DNA of 56,588 nucleotides from a virus (Duplodnaviria; Caudoviricetes): the IMG/VR virus record IMGVR_UViG_3300043409_001689, positions 1 through 56,588 of that record. One strand, written 5' to 3'. The notes under the pieces are model-generated. The model saw only the letters and a list, made by a program, of their open reading frames with translations, was not told the DNA's origin and ran no database searches. Positions within the stretch are counted from its first letter, which is position 1. Each line of letters opens with the position of its first letter. Of the stretch, positions 3,637-56,588 are shown piece by piece. The translations under genes were made by a program, and so were the position numbers.

Positions 3637-4368
3637 CTACACAGTTGCACTCATACCCAACATTCTTAACATCATTTCACGCATCTCGGGCGTTAATTCT
3701 ACTTTAGACGTGTCAATGCTTTCTAAAGTCTTAAGAACTTCTCCCGCTTTCTTAACGCTTTGGGCAGCGATTTTTGCTTCCATTTCAGCCTTCCGCTCCG
3801 CATTGCTTTTTGCAAGTTCTACAAAGTTGTTTGCACGTGTGAACGTGTCACTAATCAGCTTTTCCGCTTTTGCGGTGGCTTCGCTTATGATGCGCTCCGC
3901 ATCAATGGCAGCTTTTTCGTTCATCTCATTAGCTTTTTCCGTGGCTTGTTCAACCGTTAAAGTAGTACGTGAAACAATCGTTTCAGAATTGTATGTAGGT
4001 CTTTCTGCACCGTTGAAATAACGGAACTCCTTTGAAATACGGTCTTTCAAGAACTCTGGAAAGTCTTTTGTAGCTTTTCTCACCCATTCCTCTTTTGGAA
4101 TTTCTCTCGTTTGGTAGTCTTCAAAAATAGCCTTTAGGCGAGACTTTTGAGTGACTTTTTCAGCACGCTCCGTTGCGCTTTCAATAGGTTGCAAAGGTGT
4201 TTCAGCCGTTGGTAAGTCTTCTGAATAGTCAACCGTCAAATCTTGGTTAGCTTCGATAATTGTCTCAATGTCCTCACCCATTAAAAGGCGGTCAGCGAAT
4301 GACACCTTTGAAGTTTTAGAGGCGTTGTTTGTTGTTGTTGTTGCTGGAGATACGATAGAATTTTTCAT
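3637..4368 (-). CDS. Hypothetical coiled-coil protein
   Basis: 243-aa ORF with own promoter and leader motif; AERIISEATAKAEKLI helical repeats. Confidence 0.75.
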   Translation of the reverse strand: MKNSIVSPATTTTNNASKTSKVSFADRLLMGEDIETIIEANQDLTVDYSEDLPTAETPLQPIESATERAEKVTQKSRLKAIFEDYQTREIPKEEWVRKATKDFPEFLKDRISKEFRYFNGAERPTYNSETIVSRTTLTVEQATEKANEMNEKAAIDAERIISEATAKAEKLISDTFTRANNFVELAKSNAERKAEMEAKIAAQSVKKAGEVLKTLESIDTSKVELTPEMREMMLRMLGMSATV

Positions 4369-4434
4369 TTTCGTTAAAATTTAATTGATTGTTAAAAGAT
4401 TTTTTAAATGTAGCGTTAACCGCTTTTGATGATA

Positions 4435-5016: not shown

Positions 5017-5033
5017 TGCATAAACTATGCCAA
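5017..5033 (-). promoter_or_regulatory. Putative sigma-54 (-24/-12) promoter
   Basis: TTGGCATAGTTTATGCA, GG-N10-GC; near-copy of 4546-4562. Confidence 0.55.
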
Positions 5034-5535
5034 TTAATAATATAAGTGTATAAGAATTAAATAAAGTTTATGGCATCAATACACACCCCTTGAAAGTCTT
5101 TCAAAAGTCTATCAAAGATTTATAACAGCCTACCAAAGACTCATAAAGACTACCAAAGAACCGTGATAGCTGACTTGTAAGGACTAAAGTCTTTAGGTGT
5201 GTTTAAGAGGTTGGACGGGCTGCGAAGCCCCCCCTAATCGACTTTTGAGGGTGGGGGGAGGGCTGCCACCTTTCATGTACTCCGCCAATTCTTTCAAGAA
5301 TCATTATATTAAGAAAGTCTTTATGTGTCTTTCAGCTTGCTTGCAACCTCCCCGCCTTTTTTTCAGACTTCTTTCAGCCTTCCGACATCTCTTGCAAGGC
5401 TTCGGGAACACTCTCAATGCGCTCTCAATAAGACCCCTACCCCCTATGACTATTTGAAGCTTTTGAAAAATTATTATATATTTTTTAGGGGATTTTGTAT
5501 ATTTGTGGAATCATTTAACGAAAATCAAAAGTCCT

Positions 5536-9296: not shown

Positions 9297-9327
9297 TTTG
9301 GAATATTGAAAATAAGATATATCTTTG
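9297..9327 (+). promoter_or_regulatory. Bacteroidota primary-sigma promoter
   Basis: TTTG-19nt-TATCTTTG. Confidence 0.7.
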
Positions 9328-9331
9328 TGTT

Positions 9332-9476
9332 AGAATTGCTTTTCGCTGGATTGTAACAGAATTTTTTAAAAGTCCTATCTAAAGACTTTTAACCTAAACT
9401 CCGAAGCCTTCGGGCGGATGTCTTGCGGAAAGCATTAATTCAAAAGCCTAACTACTCATAATAGTTAGGCTTTTTT
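9332..9476 (+). ncRNA. Putative structured small RNA 1
   Basis: Promoter, ORF-free structured ~145 nt, terminator. Confidence 0.5.
9442..9476. terminator. Bidirectional terminator
   Basis: aaaagcctaacta/tagttaggctttttt. Confidence 0.8.
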
Positions 9477-9723
9477 ACTTTTATTCATTAACTAATCCTA
9501 TGTAATAATTTCCATCAATTTCTTTATACTCTACCGACAAGTCTTTCATAGTTCATCTATATCCACACTACAAATGCAACAGTCTTTCATGCTTCTTTCT
9601 TGTGGGGTATATTCGTCAAGATGCTTTTCAACTTGTTCAGAAGATAAGCTAAAATGTTCGATTAAGTCATTAGGACACGCTAATTCTTTTTCTCCTCTAT
9701 TAATTACTACTATTTGGCACATT

Positions 9724-11110: not shown

Positions 11111-12478
11111 ATGAAGATTCCTTTCACGAATATAGAACTATCAAATCCCTTTTCACTTAAAAGACCGCCTACGGTTTACGTGAACGAGCAGCCTGTTTCT
11201 TCGGGCAGAAGTTCCGTGTCGGAAGTCTCGGACTTCTTGCAAGGAAAGACTGCTTGGCACGAGATAAAGCCCAAGTATAGAAAGGAAATACTTGAAACGC
11301 TTGAAACTATGGCAATATGGAACGGTGACGTTTCAAACGCTACTGAAAACGTGGTGAAGCTTGCCAATAGACCTCACCTTTTGCACTTCGCAGAAGGCAC
11401 GTCTGAAGAGGTTATAAAGAAAGCCCAAGAGTATATGAGCGATGCGGAAAAGACTTGGTATAGGGGCGGTATGTGGGCTTTAAAGAATGACCTATTGACT
11501 CAATTAGCTTTGTTTGGTGCTATAAGTGCAGAAGCGGGGATAAGAAGGGATATGAAGGGTGTCAAGAGAGTTTACTTAGTTCCGCATAAGCACATAGTCT
11601 TTAGAAGGAACATCAAGGAAGACGATTATGAACCTTTCCAAAATATTGCACAATTAGGCTCGGTAGAACCTATAAAGCTAAACCAATTCACTTATAAGTA
11701 CCTTAGCTTAGGCAGAATCAATGAAAATCCTTACGGCATACCGCCTTTCTTGGCGGCTCTTAGGGATATTGACATAGACGACTACCTTGTAGATAACCTT
11801 CGCTATGTGGCGAAAAAGCACGGTGTCATGGGTTTCCTTTCGGTGCTTGTTAATGCTCCAGCAAAGAAGCAAGGAGAATCTGACCAACTATATTATGATA
11901 GATGCGAAAGATACTTGGATAAGATTAAGCCACAAATTGAAGAAGGCTATCGGAATGGAATCGCTTTAGGCTTCAAGAACGCTCACCAATTTGATGTGCA
12001 AAACTCCACAAGTGACGGAACTGCTGCAAGGTCTTTGGTAGAACTCATTGACCAAAAGAAGATGTCGGGTCTAAAGCAAGACCCTATTTTCTTTGGGCGT
12101 CCGTTCAATACCTCGGAAGCTATTGGAAGGGTAATCTTTGAGAAGTGGACTGGTCAACTTGAAGCTTACCAGCAATGTCTTGTAGTTTTCTTGGAAGACT
12201 TATACTTGAAGGAACTTGTATTGGCTGGATTCCCTATTAAATCTTTGTTCGTGGAGTTTGAAAAACCAAACACGAAGGATAAGCTAAGAGATGCACAAGC
12301 CCGTCAACTGCATATTCAAAATACTATCTTGCTTCGTGACGAAGGAATTATAAGTCAAGCGCAAGCTGCGAAAGAAATGAATTATGATAGGGCGTTTAAG
12401 GAAGCACCTGTTAAAATAGACCCTTCTAAGCCCGACAACGGGGGCGGGGGGAATAATAAACCTAAACCTGTAAATTAA
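11111..12478 (+). CDS. Portal protein
   Basis: Size, position after terL, PYGIPP motif. Confidence 0.82.
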   Translation: MKIPFTNIELSNPFSLKRPPTVYVNEQPVSSGRSSVSEVSDFLQGKTAWHEIKPKYRKEILETLETMAIWNGDVSNATENVVKLANRPHLLHFAEGTSEEVIKKAQEYMSDAEKTWYRGGMWALKNDLLTQLALFGAISAEAGIRRDMKGVKRVYLVPHKHIVFRRNIKEDDYEPFQNIAQLGSVEPIKLNQFTYKYLSLGRINENPYGIPPFLAALRDIDIDDYLVDNLRYVAKKHGVMGFLSVLVNAPAKKQGESDQLYYDRCERYLDKIKPQIEEGYRNGIALGFKNAHQFDVQNSTSDGTAARSLVELIDQKKMSGLKQDPIFFGRPFNTSEAIGRVIFEKWTGQLEAYQQCLVVFLEDLYLKELVLAGFPIKSLFVEFEKPNTKDKLRDAQARQLHIQNTILLRDEGIISQAQAAKEMNYDRAFKEAPVKIDPSKPDNGGGGNNKPKPVN

Positions 12479-13956
12479 TGAAAAAGAGAAATAGGGAAAC
12501 CCTAAACTTCAATATGGTGATTGGAAAGGATAAGTCTTCAATAGGCGGCTTTCAGCTTTCCCAATTCGCTAAAGCTACTGCTATCCCGATGCGCTCGGAC
12601 GCTCCCCCCTCAGTAGCCCTAAAACCCGAAGACTTCTACGAAGCGGACTTCCGTATGCTTTCTTCAACAATCGTTGGAACGGACTCTTGGAAGTGTTGTG
12701 ATTTTTCCGAAGGAAGTGTATTGAAAGACGCTTTAAGTCTTTTTGAAAAGAAGCCCGTCTATACTGACCATGATACTTGGGAAGTTAAGAACGCTGTGGG
12801 TATGGTTAAGAAAGTTTGGTGGGATAACGTGTATATGCTTGAAGGGAACGTGAAAGTCCCTTCGGGTGTGAATGGAACTCTTGCAATAGACATTACTAAT
12901 GATATGGGATTGAAGTTGGCAAGGTCTATTGAAATGGGTGCTATCTTCTCGGTGAGTGTAGGGATAGAATTTGATTGGGAAGCATCACACACCTTTGAAG
13001 ACCGTTGGGGCTTTTATGACAATATCGGAACTATCCAAAAGGATGGGGCAATGTGTCGCAGGGTAGTAAAGACTATCTACAATATCAATGAGTGTTCTTT
13101 GGTACATCTTGGGGCAGATGGCTATGCAAAACTCCTTGATGAAGACGGAAAGATAGTAAACCCAGATTTTGGTCAAATAAGCATACATAAGGCTTTGGGG
13201 TTGTCTAAGGACGACTTCAATGAAAAATCTCCCGAAACGGCAAATAACTACAAAATTATTTGCGGATTTGATAAAGGTTTATTAGGTTTATCAAAAGCGT
13301 ATCAAGATTTAAATAAAGAGTTCAATAAAGAAAATTCTAATAAAATGGATAGAAATTTTAAATACTTCTTAGGAAAGTTCGGCTTATCAGAAGCTGATTT
13401 TGCAAATGAAGAAGTTTTCATTGAAAAAATGAAGGACGTTTTAGAAGGCAATAAAAGCCTTGTGGGTCTTCAAAAGGTATCGGATAAGGCTAAAGAAATC
13501 TTTGGTCAAGACTTCGATTCTTATTCAAAAGAAAATGTGGTCTTTGGTCAAGACTTGGTAACGCTTCGCAAAGAGCATGAAGACTTCAAGAAAGAACTTG
13601 ATGCTTTGAAAGGCAAGCAAGAAGATAAGTTGACAAAACTTCGTACTGATGCGGAAGCCAAGTATCGCGCTTTGCAATTGGCAAAGAAGGCTGACGTTGA
13701 CGAAACGATTATCGAACTCTTCAAGGAATCTGATGAAACTAAGATTGTGTCTTTGGCAAAGTCTTTCGGTATTCAGTTCGGGGAGGAACTTCATGGAAAG
13801 TGTGTCAAGTGTGGTTCTAAGGAAATCAACTTCCGTTCTACGGTGTCTGAGAAAGACCCCGAAGACGATGAAGTAGTAGAAATCTATAAGGGAGGGTTTG
13901 ATAACTTGGCTCGTAAGAAGCAAGGGGAAAATAACACTTTCTTAGGTGGTAAGTAA
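12478..13956 (+). CDS. Prohead protease/scaffold protein
   Basis: PVYTDH, SVSVG, ECSLV..GAD motifs; coiled-coil C-terminus. Confidence 0.78.
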   Translation: MKKRNRETLNFNMVIGKDKSSIGGFQLSQFAKATAIPMRSDAPPSVALKPEDFYEADFRMLSSTIVGTDSWKCCDFSEGSVLKDALSLFEKKPVYTDHDTWEVKNAVGMVKKVWWDNVYMLEGNVKVPSGVNGTLAIDITNDMGLKLARSIEMGAIFSVSVGIEFDWEASHTFEDRWGFYDNIGTIQKDGAMCRRVVKTIYNINECSLVHLGADGYAKLLDEDGKIVNPDFGQISIHKALGLSKDDFNEKSPETANNYKIICGFDKGLLGLSKAYQDLNKEFNKENSNKMDRNFKYFLGKFGLSEADFANEEVFIEKMKDVLEGNKSLVGLQKVSDKAKEIFGQDFDSYSKENVVFGQDLVTLRKEHEDFKKELDALKGKQEDKLTKLRTDAEAKYRALQLAKKADVDETIIELFKESDETKIVSLAKSFGIQFGEELHGKCVKCGSKEINFRSTVSEKDPEDDEVVEIYKGGFDNLARKKQGENNTFLGGK

Positions 13957-19797: not shown

Positions 19798-19973
19798 TCT
19801 CCCCTATGACGGTTAATGAAGATGGGGGCGTTATCGTAAATGATGATGGAGAAACCGTTTTGTAGTTAAAATCTTATCTAAAATTTGATTTTTATAGAAT
19901 AAGTGGGTAGTTTAACTACTCACTTATTTCTATTTTAAGTAAATATCTTTTAATAACGAAAATTTCAAAATCC

Positions 19974-25705: not shown

Positions 25706-25758
25706 GACTTAACGAAAATTCTAATCATTATTCAAAAATCATTTCAAAAGTAACAAAG

Positions 25759-38372: not shown

Positions 38373-38780
38373 ATGGAACGTAATGTGCCTAATAAAAGCG
38401 TTGAAAGCCATAAGGCTCGAAAGCACTTCCCAAAAGCATCAACTTCTTTTTTAGAAGTAGTTATGAATACCCAAAAAATTACAGGCGGTGGCGAAGCCTA
38501 CACAGCAAGAATCATTAAAACCTTCTTAGATGAAGTAACTAAAGGCGTCACTAAGTATGGAAGGTTGACGATTCCCGATACTTTTGAAATCTATGTTTCC
38601 GTGCAAGCGGAGAAGCAAAATAATATTAAAAAAGCGGAACGCTTCGGCTCGATAACCGAAATAGTCCCCGAACATTTTATTATAAAAGTCAAACCTCATG
38701 TTCAAATGCGTAAAGTAATACGAAACAAAAGTACAAAGAGTCAATTCATGCCAAAACCAACAAAGGCAGAATTAGGATAG
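38373..38780 (+). CDS. Putative HU/IHF-like DNA-binding protein
   Basis: Basic; IIKTFLDEV...GRLTIP..F...IKVKP pattern. Confidence 0.5.
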   Translation: MERNVPNKSVESHKARKHFPKASTSFLEVVMNTQKITGGGEAYTARIIKTFLDEVTKGVTKYGRLTIPDTFEIYVSVQAEKQNNIKKAERFGSITEIVPEHFIIKVKPHVQMRKVIRNKSTKSQFMPKPTKAELG

Positions 38781-38817
38781 CTTCGGCAAAGTTTTAACGA
38801 AAATTATTGTTTTTATC

Positions 38818-38853
38818 AAAGGACTTGTGCAAATTTAGCATAAGTCCTTTTCT
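38818..38853 (+). terminator. Intrinsic terminator
   Basis: aaaggacttgtgc/gcataagtccttttct. Confidence 0.65.
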
Positions 38854-38912
38854 TATTTAGGCAAATGGCTTAGCAAATTATAATCACTGATTTTCCATAA
38901 AAGCATAGTTAT

Positions 38913-39260
38913 ATGAAAGATTTAATAAAGGCTATCACGGATTTGGTAGCTATTGCACGGAGCGACTTCAAGACTTTTGCTTTTATAGTATCGGTGGTTT
39001 TGAATGGGTTTTCACTTTGGTTTTGCTGGACGCTTGTAACTGATTTAAATACTGAACGCGACAAGAATGACACTACGTGCGAAACTAAAGTAGAAAAGAA
39101 GCAGTTGGCTTTTGATATAGAATTGAAATTAGTAAAAGACGAAAGAGATACTTTGAAAAAACTAATAGTTCAAGAAAGGGAAGACTGTAATTCTACTATT
39201 ATAAAGATGAAGGACGAACAAAAGTCCATATATGAACGAATATTAAAATGGGAAAAATGA
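38913..39260 (+). CDS. Membrane protein of the lysis module (holin-like)
   Basis: N-terminal TM plus coiled coil, upstream of the endolysin. Confidence 0.5.
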   Translation: MKDLIKAITDLVAIARSDFKTFAFIVSVVLNGFSLWFCWTLVTDLNTERDKNDTTCETKVEKKQLAFDIELKLVKDERDTLKKLIVQEREDCNSTIIKMKDEQKSIYERILKWEK

Positions 39261-39463
39261 AAGCAATAACCCTCGTATTAGTAGTTTTTTTTTCTACTTC
39301 ATTCTATTCGGACGCTCCTCGCGGGGAAGTTCCCAAAAAGCCTATATCAGAATTTAAAGATGAAATTCAAAGGCTTCAAGGCAAGGGTCACGAAGCCCAA
39401 AAAGAATTTCAATTAATTAATATTAAAATTGATTCATTATGCAAAAATTACGAAAACTTGTAA
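39248..39463 (+). CDS. Small exported/membrane protein of the lysis module
   Basis: Hydrophobic N-terminus; overlaps both neighbours. Confidence 0.55.
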   Translation: MGKMKAITLVLVVFFSTSFYSDAPRGEVPKKPISEFKDEIQRLQGKGHEAQKEFQLINIKIDSLCKNYENL

Positions 39464-40149
39464 ATGTAGGAGTGCCGCTTCTCTTGCTACTCTTAGGTAT
39501 CTTCTTTTTCTTCACTAAAGACTTTCCGACGACTTCCATAGGTGGATTAAATAGCGTAGGGGGGTTTTTATCGGACGTGGACAGCTTAAAGAATGCTGCG
39601 GACTATTGGCAAGCGGAAGCTTCTAAAAGCGACACGGTAATTATCAAAGTGCCTACATACGTCTATGTTGACCGTCCTATCTCAATTCCTATCCAAAAGA
39701 ATAAAGTCTTTCCAAAAGAAATAGACTTGAATGACTTTGACTTAGAAGACGTTTCAAAAGGCGATGAAGTGGTGGCAAGCGTTCCAGTAAAGACTACTGA
39801 AAAAGATTATGGAAGCTTCTTAGAACTTCCCTATGACTTTACCTTGAAGAATGAAGGAGTGTCTTTCGATGGACTTATTACGGCTGATTCTTTTACTATT
39901 AAGAATCTTCTTATCGCTTCGCCTTATGAAGTAATGCCTATTGTAAGTATTAAAGGAGACTATGAAAAAAGAAGCGTAGTGTTTAGGTATTCAAGCCCAT
40001 ATTTGAAAAACCTCAACATCTCCTACACGGAAAAAGATAGGCTAAGTGACAAGGGCTTAAAGAAAGTTAAAAGAAAAGCAGCTTTAAAAGGCACATTGAT
40101 AGGTGCTGGATTAGGGGCTTTGACTTATTTCATCATTCAAAGAAAGTAA
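39439..40149 (+). CDS. Putative spanin-like membrane protein
   Basis: N- and C-terminal hydrophobic segments, DTVII repeat, directly before the endolysin. Confidence 0.5.
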   Translation: MQKLRKLVNVGVPLLLLLLGIFFFFTKDFPTTSIGGLNSVGGFLSDVDSLKNAADYWQAEASKSDTVIIKVPTYVYVDRPISIPIQKNKVFPKEIDLNDFDLEDVSKGDEVVASVPVKTTEKDYGSFLELPYDFTLKNEGVSFDGLITADSFTIKNLLIASPYEVMPIVSIKGDYEKRSVVFRYSSPYLKNLNISYTEKDRLSDKGLKKVKRKAALKGTLIGAGLGALTYFIIQRK

Positions 40150-40872
40150 ATGAATCTAAGGCAAATTAAAGAGTTCCAATTTTTCCTAATAGGCTTAGGC
40201 TTATACAAAGGAAAGGCTGACGGCGAGATAGGACCAATGACTAAGGAAGCTATAAAAGCCTTCCAAAAGTCTAATGGGCTTCTTTCGGACGGTATCATCG
40301 GGTCTAAGACTATTGAAAAAGCTGTTGGGCTGGGATTTATGCGCGCGGAGTTTCCTTTGAAGCCTACAAATATTTGGTCATTAGATGCGAAACAAAGGGA
40401 AGCAAAGTTCGGAAAATTCAAATTTGAAGCGGGTCATTCTTTGACCGATAGAGATGCGGTCAATATAAAAGGTGATTGGGAAAACAAAAATATCGTTACC
40501 GTTCAAATTCCACAGCTTGAAGCAATCAAAGGAAGTGCTGCGGTGCGCTGCCATAAACTTGTAGCAAATCAACTTATAGGTTTATTTCAAGCCTTTGAAG
40601 ACAAAGGGCTTATGAAGTATATCTTAACATGGGATGGTATGTTTTACCCGAGGTTCATGCGAGGATATTATGGCAAATTGTCAAATCACTCATGGGGAAC
40701 TGCTTTTGATATTAATGTCGAATGGAACGGAATGGGAACTACCCCCGCTTTAGTAGGCGAAAAAGGAAGTGTAAGGCTTTTGGTAGAGACTGCCTTAGAG
40801 TTCGGCTTTTACTGGGGTGGTTGGTTTGACCGAAAAGACGGGATGCACTTTGAGGTGTATAAGATAATTTAA
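40150..40872 (+). CDS. Endolysin: peptidoglycan-binding domain + M15 peptidase
   Basis: ADGEIGP.T..AIKAFQ..GL..DGI.G; SNHSWG.AFDIN; DGMHFE. Confidence 0.92.
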   Translation: MNLRQIKEFQFFLIGLGLYKGKADGEIGPMTKEAIKAFQKSNGLLSDGIIGSKTIEKAVGLGFMRAEFPLKPTNIWSLDAKQREAKFGKFKFEAGHSLTDRDAVNIKGDWENKNIVTVQIPQLEAIKGSAAVRCHKLVANQLIGLFQAFEDKGLMKYILTWDGMFYPRFMRGYYGKLSNHSWGTAFDINVEWNGMGTTPALVGEKGSVRLLVETALEFGFYWGGWFDRKDGMHFEVYKII

Positions 40873-40904
40873 ATTATTTTTTTTAACGAAAATTCTAAAA
40901 ATCT

Positions 40905-41366
40905 ATGAAAAATTTAATTGTTGGCTGTTTGATTTTTACAGCAACTATGCTTGGCGTAGGCTCTTTAAGCACCATACAGGCGCAAGCTTCTAATGAAGAT
41001 CTAAAGGCTGCCGTGGTTCAAGAACAAGTTCAAGACGGGGCTTTTGATATGGCTTATTTGGACTTTAGTACTCCCGAGACTTCTAAAAAGTCAATCGCTT
41101 TTTTGTTGTCTATCATCTTGACTATTGCAGTGGGCTATATCCCTGCGGTGAAGACTTGGGCTTCTAAGGGGCAAAACCGAAAAGCTATTAGAATAGCTTT
41201 AGCAGCTTTACCTATAGTGGCTACAAGTCTATTCTTTGGGGGCGGTTTTAATCTCAATGAGTTATTGCAAGCAATCTTCGGGGCGATTGGTTCGGCTATT
41301 TTCTTACACAATATTGCTATTAAGCCTTTTACTCCTACAAAAAAAGCCGCAAAGAGTGATGTATAG
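40905..41366 (+). CDS. Holin-like multi-TM protein with N-terminal signal sequence
   Basis: Signal-like N-terminus, three hydrophobic helices, basic C-terminus, follows the endolysin. Confidence 0.55.
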   Translation: MKNLIVGCLIFTATMLGVGSLSTIQAQASNEDLKAAVVQEQVQDGAFDMAYLDFSTPETSKKSIAFLLSIILTIAVGYIPAVKTWASKGQNRKAIRIALAALPIVATSLFFGGGFNLNELLQAIFGAIGSAIFLHNIAIKPFTPTKKAAKSDV

Positions 41367-41395
41367 TTTTTTAATTTTTGAATGATGTTTGTTGT

Positions 41396-41426
41396 GGCTG
41401 ACAGGAGCAATCTTGTCAGCCTTTTT
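41396..41426 (+). terminator. Intrinsic terminator
   Basis: ggctgacagga/tcttgtcagcc followed by a T-run. Confidence 0.75.
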
Positions 41427-41462: not shown

Positions 41463-41490
41463 TTTGACTGGATTCATTTACTTATGTTTG
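41463..41490 (+). promoter_or_regulatory. Bacteroidota primary-sigma promoter
   Basis: TTTG...TATGTTTG; spacer (16 nt) is shorter than in the other promoters. Confidence 0.55.
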
Positions 41491-41519
41491 CAGTCAATTA
41501 ACGAAAATTCAATAATCCA

Positions 41520-42014
41520 ATGAAGGGAATGAGAATCCAAGACTTGCCGATGCGCGCGCAAGTCCAAATACAACAGCAATTACATAATGAGAAAAATATA
41601 CAATCTTCCAAAACAAAGTCATTAACGAAAGTTCTACAAGATGAAAAGGAAAACGATAGAAGTTTCTTTTTCCTTAGAGCCTGTCAAGCAGAAGGCTTAT
41701 TTCCCATAAAAGAATTTAAGTTTGCAAAAGAAGCCACTAAAAGATTGTGGCGTTCTGATTATTATTTTGAACAAGAGGGGATTCGGGTAGCGGTGGAACA
41801 AGAAGGTGGAACAATGACGAATGGTCGCCACAATAGAGGAAAAGGCTATGAAGAAGACATGAAGAAATACAACTTCTATCAAAGTCACGGAATAATCCTT
41901 CTGAGATTTACGACAAAACAAATATCGTTTTTTCCTGTTCAGATAGCGAAAATTGTTAAATCTGCGTTACTAAGTGAAGATTTTACGTCTTTACTATTGG
42001 AATTATACAAATAG
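41520..42014 (+). CDS. PD-(D/E)XK (Vsr/DUF559-like) endonuclease
   Basis: EFKF...RLWR.DY...VAVE.EGG...GRH.R..GY..D..KYN. Confidence 0.8.
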   Translation: MKGMRIQDLPMRAQVQIQQQLHNEKNIQSSKTKSLTKVLQDEKENDRSFFFLRACQAEGLFPIKEFKFAKEATKRLWRSDYYFEQEGIRVAVEQEGGTMTNGRHNRGKGYEEDMKKYNFYQSHGIILLRFTTKQISFFPVQIAKIVKSALLSEDFTSLLLELYK

Positions 42015-42026
42015 TTTTTATATTTG
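41997..42026 (+). promoter_or_regulatory. Bacteroidota primary-sigma promoter
   Basis: TTG-19nt-TATATTTG. Confidence 0.65.
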
Positions 42027-42029
42027 CAT

Positions 42030-42177
42030 AATATTGATATATGTCAATTATAATAGCTTTCCTAAGATTAAGCTATTTCTAAGATAAAAACTTCTCTTTC
42101 TCTCTCCTTTACTGGATAGGATTTAGAATTTTCGTTAAAATTTTGCTGAAGCCTATCTAACAAGATAGGCTTTTTTT
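42030..42177 (+). ncRNA. Putative small RNA 2, antisense to the genome-wide leader motif
   Basis: Promoter, ORF-free hairpins, CU tract, AGAATTTTCGTTAA, terminator. Confidence 0.55.
42149..42177 (+). terminator. Intrinsic terminator
   Basis: aagcctatct-aaca-agataggc-ttttttt. Confidence 0.8.
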
Positions 42178-42215
42178 ATGTAGGTTATGGATGAACAAAA
42201 TAACATTTAAGTAAA

Positions 42216-42827
42216 ATGCAAATTATCATTCATAATCCAAACTCCCTGCCTACGGCTGACTATCGTTCCCTTATTCCCATTCAAGGAAACCTAAAAGACC
42301 TAAAAGAAAAGAATTACAAGAAACTAAAGAAGTCTTTTGAAAGGTACGGCTTCAAGATTCCTTTTTTCGTATGGATTCCTACGGAGTCTGAAAGCGTCAT
42401 GGTGGACGGGGAAGACTTTGAAATAGAAGCGGGTAAGATGTACTTGCTTGACGGGCATCAAAGGCATCGTCTTTTGAATACTGAGGGGTGTACGCCTTAC
42501 GAACTTCCGTATGTGCTTATAGAAGCGGAAAACTTCTTGAAAGCAAAAGAAATGATACTTGTCATAAGTTCTCAATACGGAACTATGACAAGGGAAGGCT
42601 TGGATAGCTTCGGAATTGAGCAAGACTTCTTTGAAGATTTCGTGAACTTTGATGCTATTGTGGATTTTGGGATAGGAGAAGAAGAAGAAGGGGAAGATAA
42701 GGAATCAAGCATGAGTCTTGACACTTTTTATAAAATAGAAGTGTCTTTAGAAAGTGAAAGCGAACAAGAAAAATTATTTAATGAACTTCAAAATCAAGGT
42801 TATCAATGCAAAGTTTTAACATTATAA
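42216..42827 (+). CDS. ParB/Srx-like N-terminal domain protein
   Basis: KL..S...YGF..P, LLDGHQR motif. Confidence 0.8.
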   Translation: MQIIIHNPNSLPTADYRSLIPIQGNLKDLKEKNYKKLKKSFERYGFKIPFFVWIPTESESVMVDGEDFEIEAGKMYLLDGHQRHRLLNTEGCTPYELPYVLIEAENFLKAKEMILVISSQYGTMTREGLDSFGIEQDFFEDFVNFDAIVDFGIGEEEEGEDKESSMSLDTFYKIEVSLESESEQEKLFNELQNQGYQCKVLTL

Positions 42828-43492
42828 GAAAAACTAAGCCAAGCAATTCTTTTAGAGTTGCATCAGTAATGGGAAGTTTTGACCTTCAAGACATCAACAT
42901 AGAAGAAAGATTTGAAGGGGCTTTTGATTTTCCTAATAATTGGCAAATAGGGGCTGTTATTGGCAATAGCGGAACTGGAAAGACTACAATAGCTAAAGAG
43001 TTATTTCAAGATGCTTTTGTCACTAATTTTGAATACACAAAAGACAATATATTGGATGATATGCCTATGAAAGCATCAGTAGCAGAAATAACACAAATGT
43101 TTAATAGCGTAGGGTTTAGTTCTCCACCGTCTTGGCTAAAGCCTTACCAAGTCCTTTCAAATGGTCAAAAGATGCGCGTGGACCTTGCAAATGCTTTACT
43201 ACAAGATAAGGAATTGATTGTATTTGATGAATTTACGAGTGTAGTAGATAGGACTATTGCTCAAGTAGGAAGTTTTGCAGTGCAAAAATCAATAAGAAAA
43301 ACAAATAAAAAATTCATAGCGGTTTCTTGTCATTTTGATATTGTAGATTGGCTCATGCCCGATTGGGTTTTTAATACTAACGATATGACTTTTCAAGTTA
43401 TGTCAAAAAAAAAAGACCAAATTTACGAATCGAGATTTTCAAAACAAAAGATTCAAGAATTTGGAACTTGTTTGCTAAACACCACTATCTAA
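42806..43492 (+). CDS. Soluble ABC-type ATPase (N-part of an ATPase-GNAT protein)
   Basis: GNSGTGKT, LSNGQ, VFDEFTSVVDR, H-loop SCH. Confidence 0.88.
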   Translation: MQSFNIIRKTKPSNSFRVASVMGSFDLQDINIEERFEGAFDFPNNWQIGAVIGNSGTGKTTIAKELFQDAFVTNFEYTKDNILDDMPMKASVAEITQMFNSVGFSSPPSWLKPYQVLSNGQKMRVDLANALLQDKELIVFDEFTSVVDRTIAQVGSFAVQKSIRKTNKKFIAVSCHFDIVDWLMPDWVFNTNDMTFQVMSKKKDQIYESRFSKQKIQEFGTCLLNTTI

Positions 43493-43881
43493 ATCACAAG
43501 CTTAATCCTTCGTCTCAAATTTATGTGATGTTTTGCAATGATTTTCTTTGCGGATTTACAAGTGTTTTGCATTTCCCTCACCCTTCAAGCGATAAAATAA
43601 AAAGAGGGCATAGAACTGTAATTTTACCCGATTTCCAAGGAATAGGACTTGGCGTGTACCTTAGAGACTTTGTAGCTAATTTATACACTTCACAAGGCTT
43701 TCAATTTATAACTACTACATCTAACCCAGCATTAATTCATTCAATGAATAAGTCTAAAAAATGGAAATTAACTGCAAAAGGACGAACTCATTTTAAACCT
43801 AACAAGAATAATATGGAAGGCTTTAAAAAGACCGCTGCGGGAGCAAATAGAATAACAACTTCTTGGAAGTTTATTTGGTAG
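43405..43881 (+). CDS. GNAT acetyltransferase, probably entered by a -1 shift at the A10 run
   Basis: -1 frame KKRPNLRIEIF...W..FAKHHYL; RTVILPDFQGIGLG acetyl-CoA motif. Confidence 0.8.
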   Translation, partial: KKKRPNLRIEIFKTKDSRIWNLFAKHHYLNHKLNPSSQIYVMFCNDFLCGFTSVLHFPHPSSDKIKRGHRTVILPDFQGIGLGVYLRDFVANLYTSQGFQFITTTSNPALIHSMNKSKKWKLTAKGRTHFKPNKNNMEGFKKTAAGANRITTSWKFIW

Positions 43882-45123: not shown

Positions 45124-46068
45124 TTAAAACGGCAAATCTTGGTCAGTCTCATCTAACGTATTGTTAAAGTCGTCTCCTTCGGGAATCAAGTACCAATACT
45201 TCGGAAGAATTTTCAAAGAAAATTCAGAATGAGTAATTCCATAAGGCTTGCCAAGAAGCGTGAAAGATACATGGGTAGCTGTAACACTTGTAATAGATAA
45301 AAGCACATTATCTTGCTTCCGCAAGAACTCGTCACCACCTACCAAAGTAGAAATTTCATGCGCTTGCATATCTCTTGCCTTTCTTTCAACTTCTCTACCT
45401 TGAGGTTGTGTAGGGGCTTGCGGAATGGCTGATTGAACAGAAGGTTGAGTAGCTACGCTTGGCGTAGGAACTGGAACACCCATAGCTTTTTGCCATTCGG
45501 GGCTTTGCTGGATTTTATCTCTAATACCTTGCGGTAGGCTTTCAAAAGCAGCCATAGCCTTATCGTGATTAGCAGTCTTTAGGTCGTCTATCGTAAATTC
45601 TACCAAAGGGTGAAAGACCGAAGGCTTTTGCATACCTTTTGCAAGGGGCATGACAGACTTTATTTTATCATAAGTCTTTCCCGAAGACTTTGACAGCTCG
45701 TGAATAACAGAGACTTGAATAGAATGACCGAGGACTTTTGTAATGTCAACCGAATCTACCTCTTGTTCGGTATAAACTTTGCCGCGGGCTTCTTCCAAGA
45801 AAGTGCGAAGATTAGACTTGGTTTTTCCTCCCATAGTCATGTTGAAGTCCTTCCAAATAGTTTGGGGAACTTGCTTTCCCTCAAACTCCATCATTTCATA
45901 AGGAAGTTCAAAGCAAAATTTTACGATTCTTTGGGGCTTGGATATTCCTTGCCATTCATTAGGTTGAGTTCCAATGTCAACCATTTTGATAAATGTAGCC
46001 ACGTGCGAACCCGCAGGGGCAGGGGTGCGGTCATAACCGCCTTGTGATTTTCCGACAACTATTGCCAT
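45124..46068 (-). CDS. ssDNA-binding/annealing-type phage replication protein
   Basis: PAG.H.A....DIGTQ, KSNLR.FLE, acidic DLPF C-terminus. Confidence 0.7.
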   Translation of the reverse strand: MAIVVGKSQGGYDRTPAPAGSHVATFIKMVDIGTQPNEWQGISKPQRIVKFCFELPYEMMEFEGKQVPQTIWKDFNMTMGGKTKSNLRTFLEEARGKVYTEQEVDSVDITKVLGHSIQVSVIHELSKSSGKTYDKIKSVMPLAKGMQKPSVFHPLVEFTIDDLKTANHDKAMAAFESLPQGIRDKIQQSPEWQKAMGVPVPTPSVATQPSVQSAIPQAPTQPQGREVERKARDMQAHEISTLVGGDEFLRKQDNVLLSITSVTATHVSFTLLGKPYGITHSEFSLKILPKYWYLIPEGDDFNNTLDETDQDLPF

Positions 46069-46141
46069 TTTGATAACTTTTTACGCTCTTTTGATACCTT
46101 CTTAGGCTTTTTTGAGCAATTTAGAAATTTCGTTAATATCG

Positions 46142-46216
46142 TTGGCGTGATTGGAGTCGAACCAATACTTTCCCCATTGTAAAAATTGAGTGTGTTATCC
46201 ATTACACTACACGCCT
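46142..46216 (-). tRNA. tRNA-like element with aberrant anticodon arm (identity undetermined)
   Basis: GGCGTG/CACGCC acceptor, GTGT-AATGGATA-ACAC D arm, ATTGG-TTCGACT-CCAAT T arm. Confidence 0.7.
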
Positions 46217-46243: not shown

Positions 46244-46405
46244 TTACGCAGCCTTTTCCAAAGCTACTTTAACTCTTTTAGAAGACTTCAAGGCTTTCTT
46301 CTTTGATTCTTTAGGCTTATTGAAGCCACGAGTGTAATTTACAACATCTTCGTAAGAAGGGGCTTGGTAGCCTTCTGATTCATAAGGATTTTCAAAATTC
46401 GGCAT
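46244..46405 (-). CDS. 53-aa basic peptide (not in ORF track)
   Basis: MPNFENPYES...KVALEKAA, preceded by a promoter (46451-46482) and the leader motif. Confidence 0.65.
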   Translation of the reverse strand: MPNFENPYESEGYQAPSYEDVVNYTRGFNKPKESKKKALKSSKRVKVALEKAA

Positions 46406-46469
46406 GATTCAAGGATTTTTGATGAATTTTCGTTAACCAATTAAGTGATACAAATGTATAAAAAAATAT

Positions 46470-46919
46470 CTAAAATTCCAAACTTTTGTTATATTTTTTT
46501 TCACTATCTACAAAGATTTTTTCAATATCCTTAAATAACCTTGAAACGCCTTCATTTATGACCTTTAGCACGTCTTTAGGCACGTCTTTTTCTTCGATGT
46601 ACTTACTATTCTTAGAAGCAAAAAGCACCGTAGAAGTTTTTTGATAAAGCTTTGCTTCGACGATTAATACAGACTTTACGGAAAAGAACGTAGAATCTTT
46701 GTCGGTAAGAAAACCATAAGCGGTGTAGCTGGTTCCGTAATTCTTACGAATTGCATCAATGATGCAATAGATAAGCTGTATTTCGCTATCCGTGTACTTT
46801 TGTCGTCCTCCAACGACGTTGAAGTGTCGGGAAGGTCTTTCAGTAGGGAAGCGGCTTCTGATAAATCTTGGGTCAGCCAATAGGCTTTCAACGGCTTGGC
46901 GTTGGGCTTGGATATTCAT
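46470..46919 (-). CDS. Hypothetical protein
   Basis: Leader motif directly upstream. Confidence 0.7.
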   Translation of the reverse strand: MNIQAQRQAVESLLADPRFIRSRFPTERPSRHFNVVGGRQKYTDSEIQLIYCIIDAIRKNYGTSYTAYGFLTDKDSTFFSVKSVLIVEAKLYQKTSTVLFASKNSKYIEEKDVPKDVLKVINEGVSRLFKDIEKIFVDSEKKYNKSLEF

Positions 46920-52800: not shown

Positions 52801-53436
52801 TTATTTAAAATTTTCGTTAAAATATTTTTTAGTATAATTTAAGTCTTCAATACTTAATTCAAACCACTCACCTCCTACTCTTTTATTGTCAAAAAAGGCG
52901 TGTAGTTCTTTTTCGTCTTTTAATGTTCCATTAAATTGACTAACTAATTGTATTGTTGGATTTGAAGTCAAATGGCTCTTTAATCGTGAATCCATATTAG
53001 TAGTAAAACCAATTTTATGTAAACCATTGGATTTAAGCAAGTAGATTACTCCGCTTGTATATTCAATAGGTTTTATTTTAACTTTCTCGTTTGTTTTAAG
53101 CGTTTTAATGTCATTAAATGAATAACAAGACTTTCCAATTTGTTGAGATTTTGGATAAAAGTTAATAAGACCTACTTTGTTCAACTCAATCATAAGCCTA
53201 CTTATTCTTTTTGCTATACTTTGTTTTGTTATGTCTTTTCTAAAAATAATTGGTATTTTTTTAAATAACATATTGTAATTGATGTGATAGTATGCAACTC
53301 CTTCATGGTCTATTTTTTCAGTAGAAGATAATTTAGATATTTTTAAAGCTGAATCATAGACTATTATAGCTTCAATAGGCAAACCTAAATTTTTGCTACT
53401 CCAAAAGTCTTGGTCAATAGTTACTTTTTTTGACAT
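52801..53436 (-). CDS. Initiator-like N-domain fused to a T5orf172/GIY-YIG-like domain
   Basis: Start reassigned to 53436 after the leader motif; IYL...KIGFT....RL...E..LH..F...R..GEWF. Confidence 0.78.
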   Translation of the reverse strand: MSKKVTIDQDFWSSKNLGLPIEAIIVYDSALKISKLSSTEKIDHEGVAYYHINYNMLFKKIPIIFRKDITKQSIAKRISRLMIELNKVGLINFYPKSQQIGKSCYSFNDIKTLKTNEKVKIKPIEYTSGVIYLLKSNGLHKIGFTTNMDSRLKSHLTSNPTIQLVSQFNGTLKDEKELHAFFDNKRVGGEWFELSIEDLNYTKKYFNENFK

Positions 53437-53510: not shown

Positions 53511-53758
53511 GCATAAAAAAACCCTCGAAAAAAGAGAGGGTGGAAAGCACGAATAAGGAAAGCTAATAAAAAGACCTTATGCGTACAAACTCTCTTTTTT
53601 CAAGGGTACTCCTTGTAAAGAAATTGAAATAAAACAAGGACGCTTGAACACTTCCAAATGTCTTTGTTTATTAGCTAATTAAAAAGGCTTAATTACTATT
53701 GTTCCACCATCAATAATTAAGTGACACAAAGATAAATCAAGCCTTTTTAAAAACCAAA
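53511..53758 (-). promoter_or_regulatory. Promoter plus structured attenuator-like leader
   Basis: TATCTTTG (53727-53734) with TTTG (53755-53758); interleaved complementary segments; terminator at 53515-53541. Confidence 0.6.
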
Positions 53759-53760
53759 TT

Positions 53761-54000
53761 TTATTTACCTAAAAGGTAAAATAATGCAACTATCACCAAA
53801 AGATTGCTTATTGATAGGGCAATAATGGCGAAATTAGCCATCTTCTTGACCTTCTCCAATTCCTTGTCAGCTTCCTTTAAGCAATCTGAAAGATGCCTTT
53901 GCCAAGCTATTAAAGATTCTGCTTTCTGTGACATATGAGACATAGGAAGTCTTGGAGGAGGTGGCGGGATATTCTTAGGTTTAATTTCTGATAGTCTCAT
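53761..54000 (-). CDS. Small C-terminally anchored membrane protein
   Basis: Poly-Pro stretch, coiled coil, C-terminal TM. Confidence 0.65.
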   Translation of the reverse strand: MRLSEIKPKNIPPPPPRLPMSHMSQKAESLIAWQRHLSDCLKEADKELEKVKKMANFAIIALSISNLLVIVALFYLLGK

Positions 54001-56282: not shown

Positions 56283-56314
56283 CAAAAGTATATCTTTTAA
56301 TTGGTAATTCCAAA
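56283..56314 (-). promoter_or_regulatory. Bacteroidota primary-sigma promoter
   Basis: TACTTTTG with -33 TTTG, 20-nt spacer. Confidence 0.7.
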
Positions 56315-56588
56315 TGTTTTAATAAATAATTTATTTTTATAAAAAAAAGTCTAAAAGGTTTGTTTTATTTAAATTATTGTTATACATTTGTATTTATATT
56401 TAAATGGGTGTCTCAGTATAAAATGGTGTATTTGCAACTTTTGGAAGTTGCAAATATTTGCGGTGAAAACTGCTGTACTCGCTGCAAGTGTGGTTTATCA
56501 TTAATTGAAGCTAACGTTTGCCCCCCCCCCCCCCCCCCCCCCCGTTTTGGGGGGGGTGTGGGGGGGGGGGGGTTTTGGGTGGCAAAAA

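Follow-up and report, generated by a model that had tools for sequence, protein, structure and literature searches.

What does a phage hold in a gap of 201 nucleotides (nt) that is poor in open reading frames (ORFs) and contains the phage's own gene leader in inverted orientation? The question is raised by positions 42015-42215 of IMG/VR virus record IMGVR_UViG_3300043409_001689, which was analysed over its entire length of 56,588 bases (referred to as the window; the record is rated about 66% complete). A sequence-only reading of this DNA had proposed that a short RNA from the gap acts on many phage genes, either as a master translational switch or as an adaptor. We find that the gap contains a predicted non-coding RNA on the plus strand (42031-42177, about 147 nt), which is bracketed by a host-type promoter and an intrinsic terminator and carries a segment complementary to the leader of about 25 gene starts. 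This segment is referred to as the anti-leader. Our preferred reading, which we hold tentatively and with less than even confidence, is that of a trans-acting anti-leader RNA which also gates the three-gene operon behind it.

The leader is a motif that is repeated along the genome. Its most constant part, TTAACGAAAATT, is present in the window in 26 copies with at most one mismatch, and the 19-mer TTTTAACGAAAATTCTAAA has 16 matches at up to three mismatches compared with 0.30 expected, a number reached in none of 100 shuffled sequences. The copies between 1664 and 4987 lie on the minus strand among minus-strand genes, those between 5515 and 41622 on the plus strand among plus-strand genes, and those between 45048 and 53462 again on the minus strand among minus-strand genes. 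Altogether, 25 of the 26 copies are oriented like the local genes; the probability of at least this number under random orientation is about 4e-7. The sole inverted copy, at 42138 on the minus strand, lies between plus-strand genes.

Most copies are followed by an ATG 0-14 nt past TCTAAA, usually after (A)ATCC(T), and the three leader examples quoted earlier for this genome (40905, 45026 and 18460) read as written. In two early genes, ending at 2926 and 4368, the ATG is found within the motif (TTAACGAAA-ATG-AAAA at 2926-2935 and 4368-4377, minus strand), so that the 3' half of the motif is coding in these genes. In one further gene the ATG follows the motif directly. Four co-oriented copies are located away from a start codon: the copy at 1664 is followed by a hairpin, that at 25709 has its ATG 33 nt off, that at 46136 stands directly after a tRNA gene, and that at 38794 is truncated after AAAATT and followed by a terminator. 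A weaker leader copy followed by ATG was also observed at 13327-13347 (plus strand) inside the head-protease gene (12478-13956), where it may mark an internal start, for example that of a scaffold protein.

Whether such a motif acts in DNA or in RNA can be judged from its position relative to the promoters, which are of the Bacteroidota type in this phage. The pattern TTG-N17-21-TAnnTTTG has 21 full matches on both strands compared with 7.85 ± 3.0 in 100 Markov simulations, and 13 of the 21 are intergenic in a window with about 12% non-coding DNA. For F. johnsoniae (Flavobacterium johnsoniae), the available part of the source gives a -7 box with a G at -5 and a start site 4-5 nt past the box, and it states for Bacteroidia that their ribosomes leave Shine-Dalgarno sequences unused (PMC6847099). 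At the promoters 41483, 45064 and 5498 the motif begins 9 nt past the -7 box and hence 4-6 nt from the predicted 5' end of the mRNA; for five other promoters the distance from the box is 14-57 nt. An element of the 5' untranslated region (UTR) is favoured by these positions, by the two genes with an ATG within the motif and by the varying motif-to-ATG spacing, and we infer that the motif is a leader acting in RNA. Activity as a promoter is less likely. It is kept in consideration because intergenic plus-strand matches to the host-type promoter are lacking from the structural and lysis region (11111-41366), where the sole two full matches are inside genes.

The unit with the inverted copy has a clear anatomy. 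Its promoter (41997-42026, plus strand), already recognized in the earlier reading, is one of the 13 intergenic full matches and consists of a TTG at 41997-41999, a 19-nt spacer and the -7 box TATATTTG at 42019-42026. A sigma-70-style scan also reports a promoter at 41997-42024, and the 9-mer TTGGAATTA, located at -33, recurs in the minus-strand promoter at 56290. The preceding gene, 41520-42014 (plus strand), ends with TAG at 42012-42014, and the next gene starts at 42216. From the start-site spacing in the available part of PMC6847099, transcription is predicted to begin at about 42031. The RNA of about 146 nt postulated before thus stands in its anatomy, with its start corrected to this position. 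The upstream gene has its own promoter, leader and start codon at 41483-41522 (plus strand; promoter 41483). Since 42148 is the first terminator after this gene, the anti-leader is probably transcribed from the 41483 promoter as well.

The predicted RNA contains two hairpins near its 5' end (42034-42049 and 42052-42077), which are present in both the minimum free energy (MFE) and the centroid structures, followed by the CU tract ACTTCTCTTTCTCTCTCCTTT (42089-42109) and the anti-leader (42114-42140). The latter, when reverse-complemented, reads TTTTAACGAAAATTCTAAATCCTATCC and corresponds to the complete leader consensus as far as the start codon, where ATC replaces ATG. The inverted motif copy proper occupies 42122-42140 on the minus strand; it is the only one that faces against the local genes, and it continues as TCCT-ATC-CAG-TAA, so that no ATG follows. 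It is identical at all 19 positions to the copy at 40881-40899 and ranks sixth of 26 by leave-one-out score, hence it is not decayed. The strong intrinsic terminator (42148-42177, plus strand) has an 11-bp stem at 42148-42173 with four G-C pairs, the loop AACA and a run of eight T; the hairpin alone yields -14.4 kcal/mol. Because on the minus strand CAGCAAAATTTT comes after the stem in place of an immediate T run and the scan gives no minus-strand site, we read the terminator as active on the plus strand only. The terminator, the CU tract, the two 5' hairpins and the uniqueness of the antisense copy had all been described correctly in the sequence-only reading, as had the lack of an ORF in the unit.

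Only two frames touch the gap, 41974-42087 (plus strand, GTG, 37 amino acids) and 42068-42163 (minus strand, TTG, 31 amino acids), and the unit has no credible protein-coding capacity. An attempt to obtain an ORF in the gap by reading TAA as a sense codon gave nothing credible; TAA is the stop codon of 52 of the 70 chosen ORFs. No family of Rfam 15 matches the unit. Across the whole window only a tRNA (46142-46216) passes the gathering threshold, and the top match on 41900-42300 is Phe_leader with 22.7 bits compared with a threshold of 55.

The fold of the RNA was computed for a length of 151 nt. It has an MFE of -32.1 kcal/mol (z = -3.13), and 3 of 200 shuffled sequences fold as well or better. 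In the ensemble, the UUCGUUAAAA stretch at 42133-42140 is mostly open, with probabilities of being unpaired of 0.58-0.97. GGAUAGG at 42114-42120 pairs with the CU tract, which thereby is partly engaged within the molecule (probability unpaired at most 0.12 except at 42117), and 42125-42128 are also paired. A different structure, the antiterminator hairpin 42113-42159 (plus strand), joins 42113-42132 with 42137-42159 in an interrupted stem closed by a CGUU loop (42133-42136), and its 3' strand includes the 5' arm of the terminator. When the RNA is cut at 42160, the MFE structure contains this hairpin. A hairpin with a CGUU loop and, separately, a pairing of GGATAGG with the terminator arm had been suggested before; both are borne out by the computed folds and turn out to be one structure. 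Its local energy in silico is -13.3 kcal/mol, compared with -17.1 kcal/mol for the terminator plus a small hairpin. Antiterminator and terminator are thus modelled as mutually exclusive and of comparable stability.

Pairing with the leaders was predicted by cofolding the RNA with 60-nt windows at the other 25 motif copies. The gain ranges from -10.0 to -25.4 kcal/mol with a mean of -17.4 kcal/mol, compared with -4.9 ± 2.5 kcal/mol (minimum -19.8 kcal/mol) for 150 random motif-free windows. Six of the 25 leaders exceed every random control, and most of the 25 share 13-19 contiguous complementary bases with the RNA. The proposed pairing with many leaders is therefore predicted beyond the level of random windows. 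The base facing the G of the target start codons is itself a G, so that the start codon is not fully covered by the anti-leader.

Two partners stand out in silico. The leader of gene 41520, together with its purine-rich first codons, pairs with the anti-leader and the CU tract in a duplex of -36.3 kcal/mol, and its cofold gain of -25.4 kcal/mol is the best of the 25 leaders. In the MFE structure of the 684-nt RNA 41494-42177, positions 41498-41518 pair with 42138-42119 and positions 41524-41529 with the CU tract. The best predicted partner is the inverted paralogue of the anti-leader region at 38780-38817 (plus strand), a spacer between a stop codon and the terminator 38818-38850, which it abuts. 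It consists of a 26-nt block, 24 of 26 bases being complementary to 42127-42152, and a 9-nt block (38809-38817) corresponding to 42083-42091; both blocks are in the same order and in inverted orientation. The 26-nt block reaches 14 nt past the motif, which is the case for no other copy. With the unit, 38780-38817 is predicted to form a duplex of -45.5 kcal/mol with a cofold gain of -26.5 kcal/mol. As the cofold leaves the hairpin at 38818 intact, an effect on this terminator is not predicted by energy alone.

The terminator 38818-38850 precedes the lysis genes (38913-41366), which have no plus-strand -7 box of their own. The lysis cassette (38851-41421, plus strand) encodes an endolysin with PG_binding_1 and Peptidase_M15_4 domains as well as membrane proteins. 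It contains no TAnnTTTG on its strand and is bracketed by the strong terminators 38818-38850 and 41396-41421, so that its expression seems to require read-through. The two inverted paralogue loci flank the lysis cassette and gene 41520. This arrangement fits either an RNA and its prime target or a recombination scar between repeated leaders. Inversion of the DNA between the 26-nt repeats was considered and not retained: no strand-change joint was found in four sequencing runs, the contigs of which miss rare forms.

The other gene group next to the unit is the three-gene operon 42216-43881 (plus strand), which encodes a 203-residue protein (ParB in the earlier reading), an ABC-type ATPase and a GNAT-like protein. 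No plus-strand TAnnTTTG was found between 42027 and 43023. Because a -7 box is lacking between the terminator and 42216, the operon appears to be reached only by read-through of the terminator. Read-through into ParB, ABC and GNAT genes had been proposed; the predicted alternative pairing and the promoter-less operon are in keeping with this. As to the gene labels, the ATPase has a PF00005 match at 4.9e-10, and the GNAT and ParB-type assignments are weakly supported. Pfam, NCBIfam, PHROGs and PADLOC yielded no specific function for the cassette. The ATPase has relatives in 312 IMG/VR stretches. Among 83 IMG/VR loci examined, a match to the first gene is found upstream of the ATPase in 79 and a match to the third gene downstream in 81. 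The first protein of the cassette has 168-203 residues across the cassette loci (L056-L135). By eye, with no formal scan, no long leader like that of the unit was seen in the 160 nt upstream of the first gene in these 83 loci, which assigns the unit to the phage rather than to the cassette.

Contigs of a diverged strain, found in two runs, follow the window up to 42010 and then continue with 134-255 unlike letters, which are the same in both. In one run, two contigs rejoin the window at 43873 after 185 unlike letters, and another contig matches 41618-42177 without any difference. From these breaks, the segment 42011-43872, comprising unit and cassette, is replaced or unalignable in some close kin.

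Two further units in the genome have a promoter, a structured ORF-free stretch and a terminator, so that this layout recurs. In the unit at 9297-9480 (plus strand), the host-type promoter TTTG-N19-TATCTTTG is followed by about 150 nt free of ORFs and then by a strong terminator (9442-9474), beyond which there is no plus-strand gene. This unit folds with an MFE of -45.7 kcal/mol (z = -5.77) and contains a degenerate sense leader ending in TCCTATC-TAA. The unit at 53734-53512 (minus strand, within 53512-53765) has a host-type promoter, about 210 ORF-free structured nt and a terminator (z = -5.77); behind it lie a normal leader and gene 52801-53436. Neither unit contains an anti-leader, and their alignment to 42031-42177 is limited to the promoter.

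Relatives of the unit were sought at several levels. Exact 16-mer scans with the motif gave single hits only, in 44 stretches of IMG/VR and, among the matches listed, in at least 120 stretches each of JGI metagenomes and species genomes. At up to two mismatches, no locus with a set of leader-like copies was found. One locus with four motif hits (L181) was rejected as a low-complexity tandem array. The gap, compared with the fetched loci by blastn and nhmmer, gave motif-length matches only, and an nhmmer search across 405 loci (3.09 Mb) was negative. An exact-word search with the 203-residue protein led to three distant loci, for gene 41520 none were found in IMG/VR or metagenomes, and the exact peptide words of the portal protein had none in IMG/VR. 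Portal alignment led to 38 loci (26-43% identity), in which the repeated words proved to be other promoters or palindromes. Five distant relatives (L376, L380, L394, L384 and L379, at 36-41% portal identity) each have repeated elements of their own: L394 repeats whole promoters five times, L376 and L380 have promoters with TTAAACAA after 5 nt, and L384 and L379 carry the palindrome TAAAGTAACTTTA at intergenic places. Searches of the open literature, covering main texts, listed no account of a leader or an RNA of this kind, and the literature matches to pieces of the motif were unrelated by title among the matches listed.

With respect to expression, a metatranscriptome run (X17) covers a small share of a 9-kb stretch. 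Five contigs were placed, none on 42030-42177: four match at 99% or more (45433-45582, 45904-46054, 46359-46509 and 46499-46649) and one at less than 90% (38890-38924). The contigs are 151 nt long and of low depth, and the RNA library may contain DNA, so the run is uninformative either way about expression of the unit.

How might such an RNA work? It would be made from the host-type promoter and also as the 3' end of the gene 41520 mRNA, and most transcripts would end at the terminator 42148-42177. The released RNA would pair with phage mRNA leaders, starting at the open UUCGUUAAAA stretch, and the duplex would reach the A and the U of the start codon. Since it would extend that far, we propose that it blocks initiation or presents a substrate for a double-strand-specific RNase. 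The strongest partners would be the spacer 38780-38817 in front of the lysis-gating terminator and the leader of gene 41520-42014. A segment left free would fold with the 5' arm of the terminator as antiterminator and allow read-through into the operon, while pairing in trans would favour termination. We infer that the RNA is made, pairs in cells and affects translation or termination. The signal that chooses between the two folds would be the leader-bearing mRNAs themselves. A stronger form, in which one RNA does both jobs, permitting read-through when free, and when paired causing termination and blocking the message or marking it for cleavage, the lysis-terminator spacer included, appears rather unlikely to us.

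Several observations weigh against the trans-acting anti-leader RNA. Most of the 5' part of the anti-leader is engaged in pairing within the RNA itself, the mean probability of being unpaired over 42114-42140 being only 0.41. The cofold energies demonstrate feasibility and are not independent evidence, because any copy of the motif yields them. The G facing the G of the start codons reflects a minus-strand ATC in place of ATG. Why a single repressor should act on replication genes as well as on structural genes is not obvious. The inverted copy, being an arm of the 26- plus 9-nt inverted duplication, can be explained by recombination alone, and the unit, being the only visible transcription route into the three-gene operon, looks like an attenuator. 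The transcript 42031-42177 is itself predicted from sequence only. No relative with the leader motif set or the unit was found in IMG/VR or among the metagenome and species-genome matches listed, and the unit may be absent or unalignable in close kin. The duplication, the attenuator-like layout and the breaks in the variant strain weaken or redirect the proposal of a master switch or adaptor.

If the unit were a cis attenuator of the operon 42216-43881 and nothing else, the short terminated RNA would be a by-product with no action in trans. This is unlikely in our view but has to be taken seriously, given that read-through is the sole visible route into the operon and that the hairpin 42113-42159 forms before the 3' arm of the terminator is made and is just 3.8 kcal/mol weaker than the terminated fold; the unit at 53734-53512 (minus strand), moreover, is built alike, with a promoter, about 200 ORF-free nt and a terminator in front of a gene. 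Attenuation does not account, however, for the exact match of the antiterminator strand to the leader. There is no candidate for a sensing ligand or protein, and the 83 cassette loci show nothing comparable by eye. A relic would account for the leader copy itself: an inverted duplication or a scar of module exchange at leader repeats, or a lost minus-strand gene with ATG changed to ATC, antisense transcription then being incidental. The continuation of the leader to TCCT-ATC points in this direction, as do the 26- and 9-nt blocks shared with 38780-38817 around the lysis cassette and gene 41520. The variant-strain breaks at 42010 and 43873 mark the segment as variable, and the cassette, with 312 IMG/VR relatives compared with none for the portal by exact peptide words, shows a pattern typical of a mobile module. 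Yet the supposed relic is intact (19 of 19 core positions) whereas its partner at 38794 is the truncated one. It lies exactly between a promoter and a terminator of the same direction, it forms a structured alternative to that terminator, and no strand-change joint was seen, with the reservation on rare forms given above. We regard this origin as doubtful, though as a serious contender.

Two other explanations are improbable. The segment could serve mainly as the 3'UTR of gene 41520-42014 and limit the translation of that gene by pairing with its 5'UTR. The terminator at 42148 is indeed the first one after the gene, and the joining of leader and anti-leader in the 684-nt MFE structure, with the duplex of -36.3 and the gain of -25.4 kcal/mol, is what such pairing would give; but a separate promoter at 42019 would then be unnecessary, and the anti-leader is closer to the genome consensus than to the leader of gene 41520, with which it shares only 13 contiguous bases. 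To the idea that the motif is a phage-specific promoter at the DNA level, the inverted copy firing a minus-strand RNA antisense to the unit and the end of gene 41520, we give still less credence. Such a promoter would serve the region 11111-41366, which lacks intergenic plus-strand host-type matches. Some copies closely follow terminator-like hairpins (for example 19897-19929, then the motif at 19953), and on the minus strand the inverted copy stands directly after the hairpin 42173-42148. With the ATG inside the motif in two genes and directly after it in another, however, a transcription start would find no room. The ATG follows the motif at variable distances (0-14 nt and more), the predicted transcript begins 4-6 nt before the motif at three host-type promoters, and no phage RNA polymerase or sigma factor was found among the 30 proteins scanned against PHROGs, in a record that is incomplete. 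The trans-acting anti-leader RNA with its gating function keeps its place as our tentative choice.

As to the phage itself, the window encodes a portal protein, a head protease, a major head protein, a helicase, a helicase loader, an HNH endonuclease and the endolysin. Near-identical DNA is found in freshwater metagenome runs (four rows from two studies, 0.57-0.94 of the sampled words, the possible source run being left out). Two distant portal relatives carry the source names Raineya (35% identity) and Crocinitomicaceae (33%). There is no cultured close relative: in the phage collection, portal identity never exceeds 29%. The tRNA gene at 46141-46216 (minus strand; ARAGORN, Rfam tRNA 43.8 bits) has the anticodon UUA and would, if so, be a TAA suppressor. 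A leader copy begins 4 nt after it, and the TTG at 46119 shares its reading frame with the ATG at 46068, two TAA codons lying in between. A non-coding stretch of 514 nt (5022-5535), located where two gene arms diverge, contains many AAAGTCTTT/AAAGACT-like words and G/C-rich runs and may be an origin or control region. The stretches of 23 C and of 13 G near the record's end (56521-56572) are probably an assembly or end artefact.

The leader is of interest regardless of how the unit works. For the choice of start codons without Shine-Dalgarno sequences in Bacteroidota and their phages, a nearly invariant leader of 12-19 nt at 25 genes offers a sharp handle, and a natural RNA exactly antisense to it would at once provide a means of turning it off. 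The dual-job RNA, if true, would be an RNA-only circuit that gauges and limits the phage mRNA load, or an RNA-based immunity against related phages, at work in a lineage of hosts with ribosomes that disregard Shine-Dalgarno sequences. If action in trans is false, the locus still illustrates how inverted duplications around a lysis cassette can arise from repeated leaders.

An anti-leader RNA would plausibly be a variant of phage antisense control, and the earlier statement that no system of this kind has been described is too strong, since c4 of P1/P7 and sar of P22 block ribosome-binding regions. According to the available part of the source, the c4 RNA pairs with the ribosome-binding region of the ant mRNA and blocks its translation, which serves immunity, and loops presumably expose its complementary bases (PMC12197685). 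The candidate RNA resembles c4 in being complementary to an initiation region. It differs in that c4, as far as that text goes, acts on one mRNA (ant), whereas here the leader of about 25 gene starts is addressed; there is no sequence similarity between the two and no Rfam match. Likewise, sar of P22 and OOP of lambda are described there as short phage RNAs with their own promoter and terminator that pair with phage mRNAs, OOP triggering cleavage by RNase III (PMC12197685). As described, sar and OOP are encoded opposite a single target, in contrast to the many targets elsewhere in the genome proposed here. Should the action in trans be true, phage antisense control would be extended from the one-RNA-one-gene type (c4, sar, OOP) to many genes.

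RegA and RegB of T4 act globally on many phage mRNAs by way of a short sequence that the translation-initiation regions have in common. These regulators are proteins, a repressor and an endoribonuclease, while the candidate described here is an RNA. Leaders with terminator and antiterminator belong to the classical repertoire, as do short terminated transcripts in front of phage operons, such as that preceding the late genes of lambda. The unit has the same elements, namely a promoter, a terminator 150-200 nt further on, a promoter-less operon and mutually exclusive hairpins. Unlike in the leader of the lambda late genes, no antiterminator protein, ligand or nut/qut-like site was identified, and the antiterminator strand reproduces the gene leader of the phage itself. 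Finally, in icaR of Staphylococcus aureus a pyrimidine-rich 3'UTR is reported to pair with the initiation region at the 5' end of its own mRNA. Gene 41520 would be similar in having a 3'UTR with an anti-initiation sequence directed against its own 5' region; the target in icaR is a Shine-Dalgarno sequence and only one mRNA is concerned. What would be new in the phage described here, if it works, is one RNA directed against a leader common to about 25 genes and fused to an attenuator.

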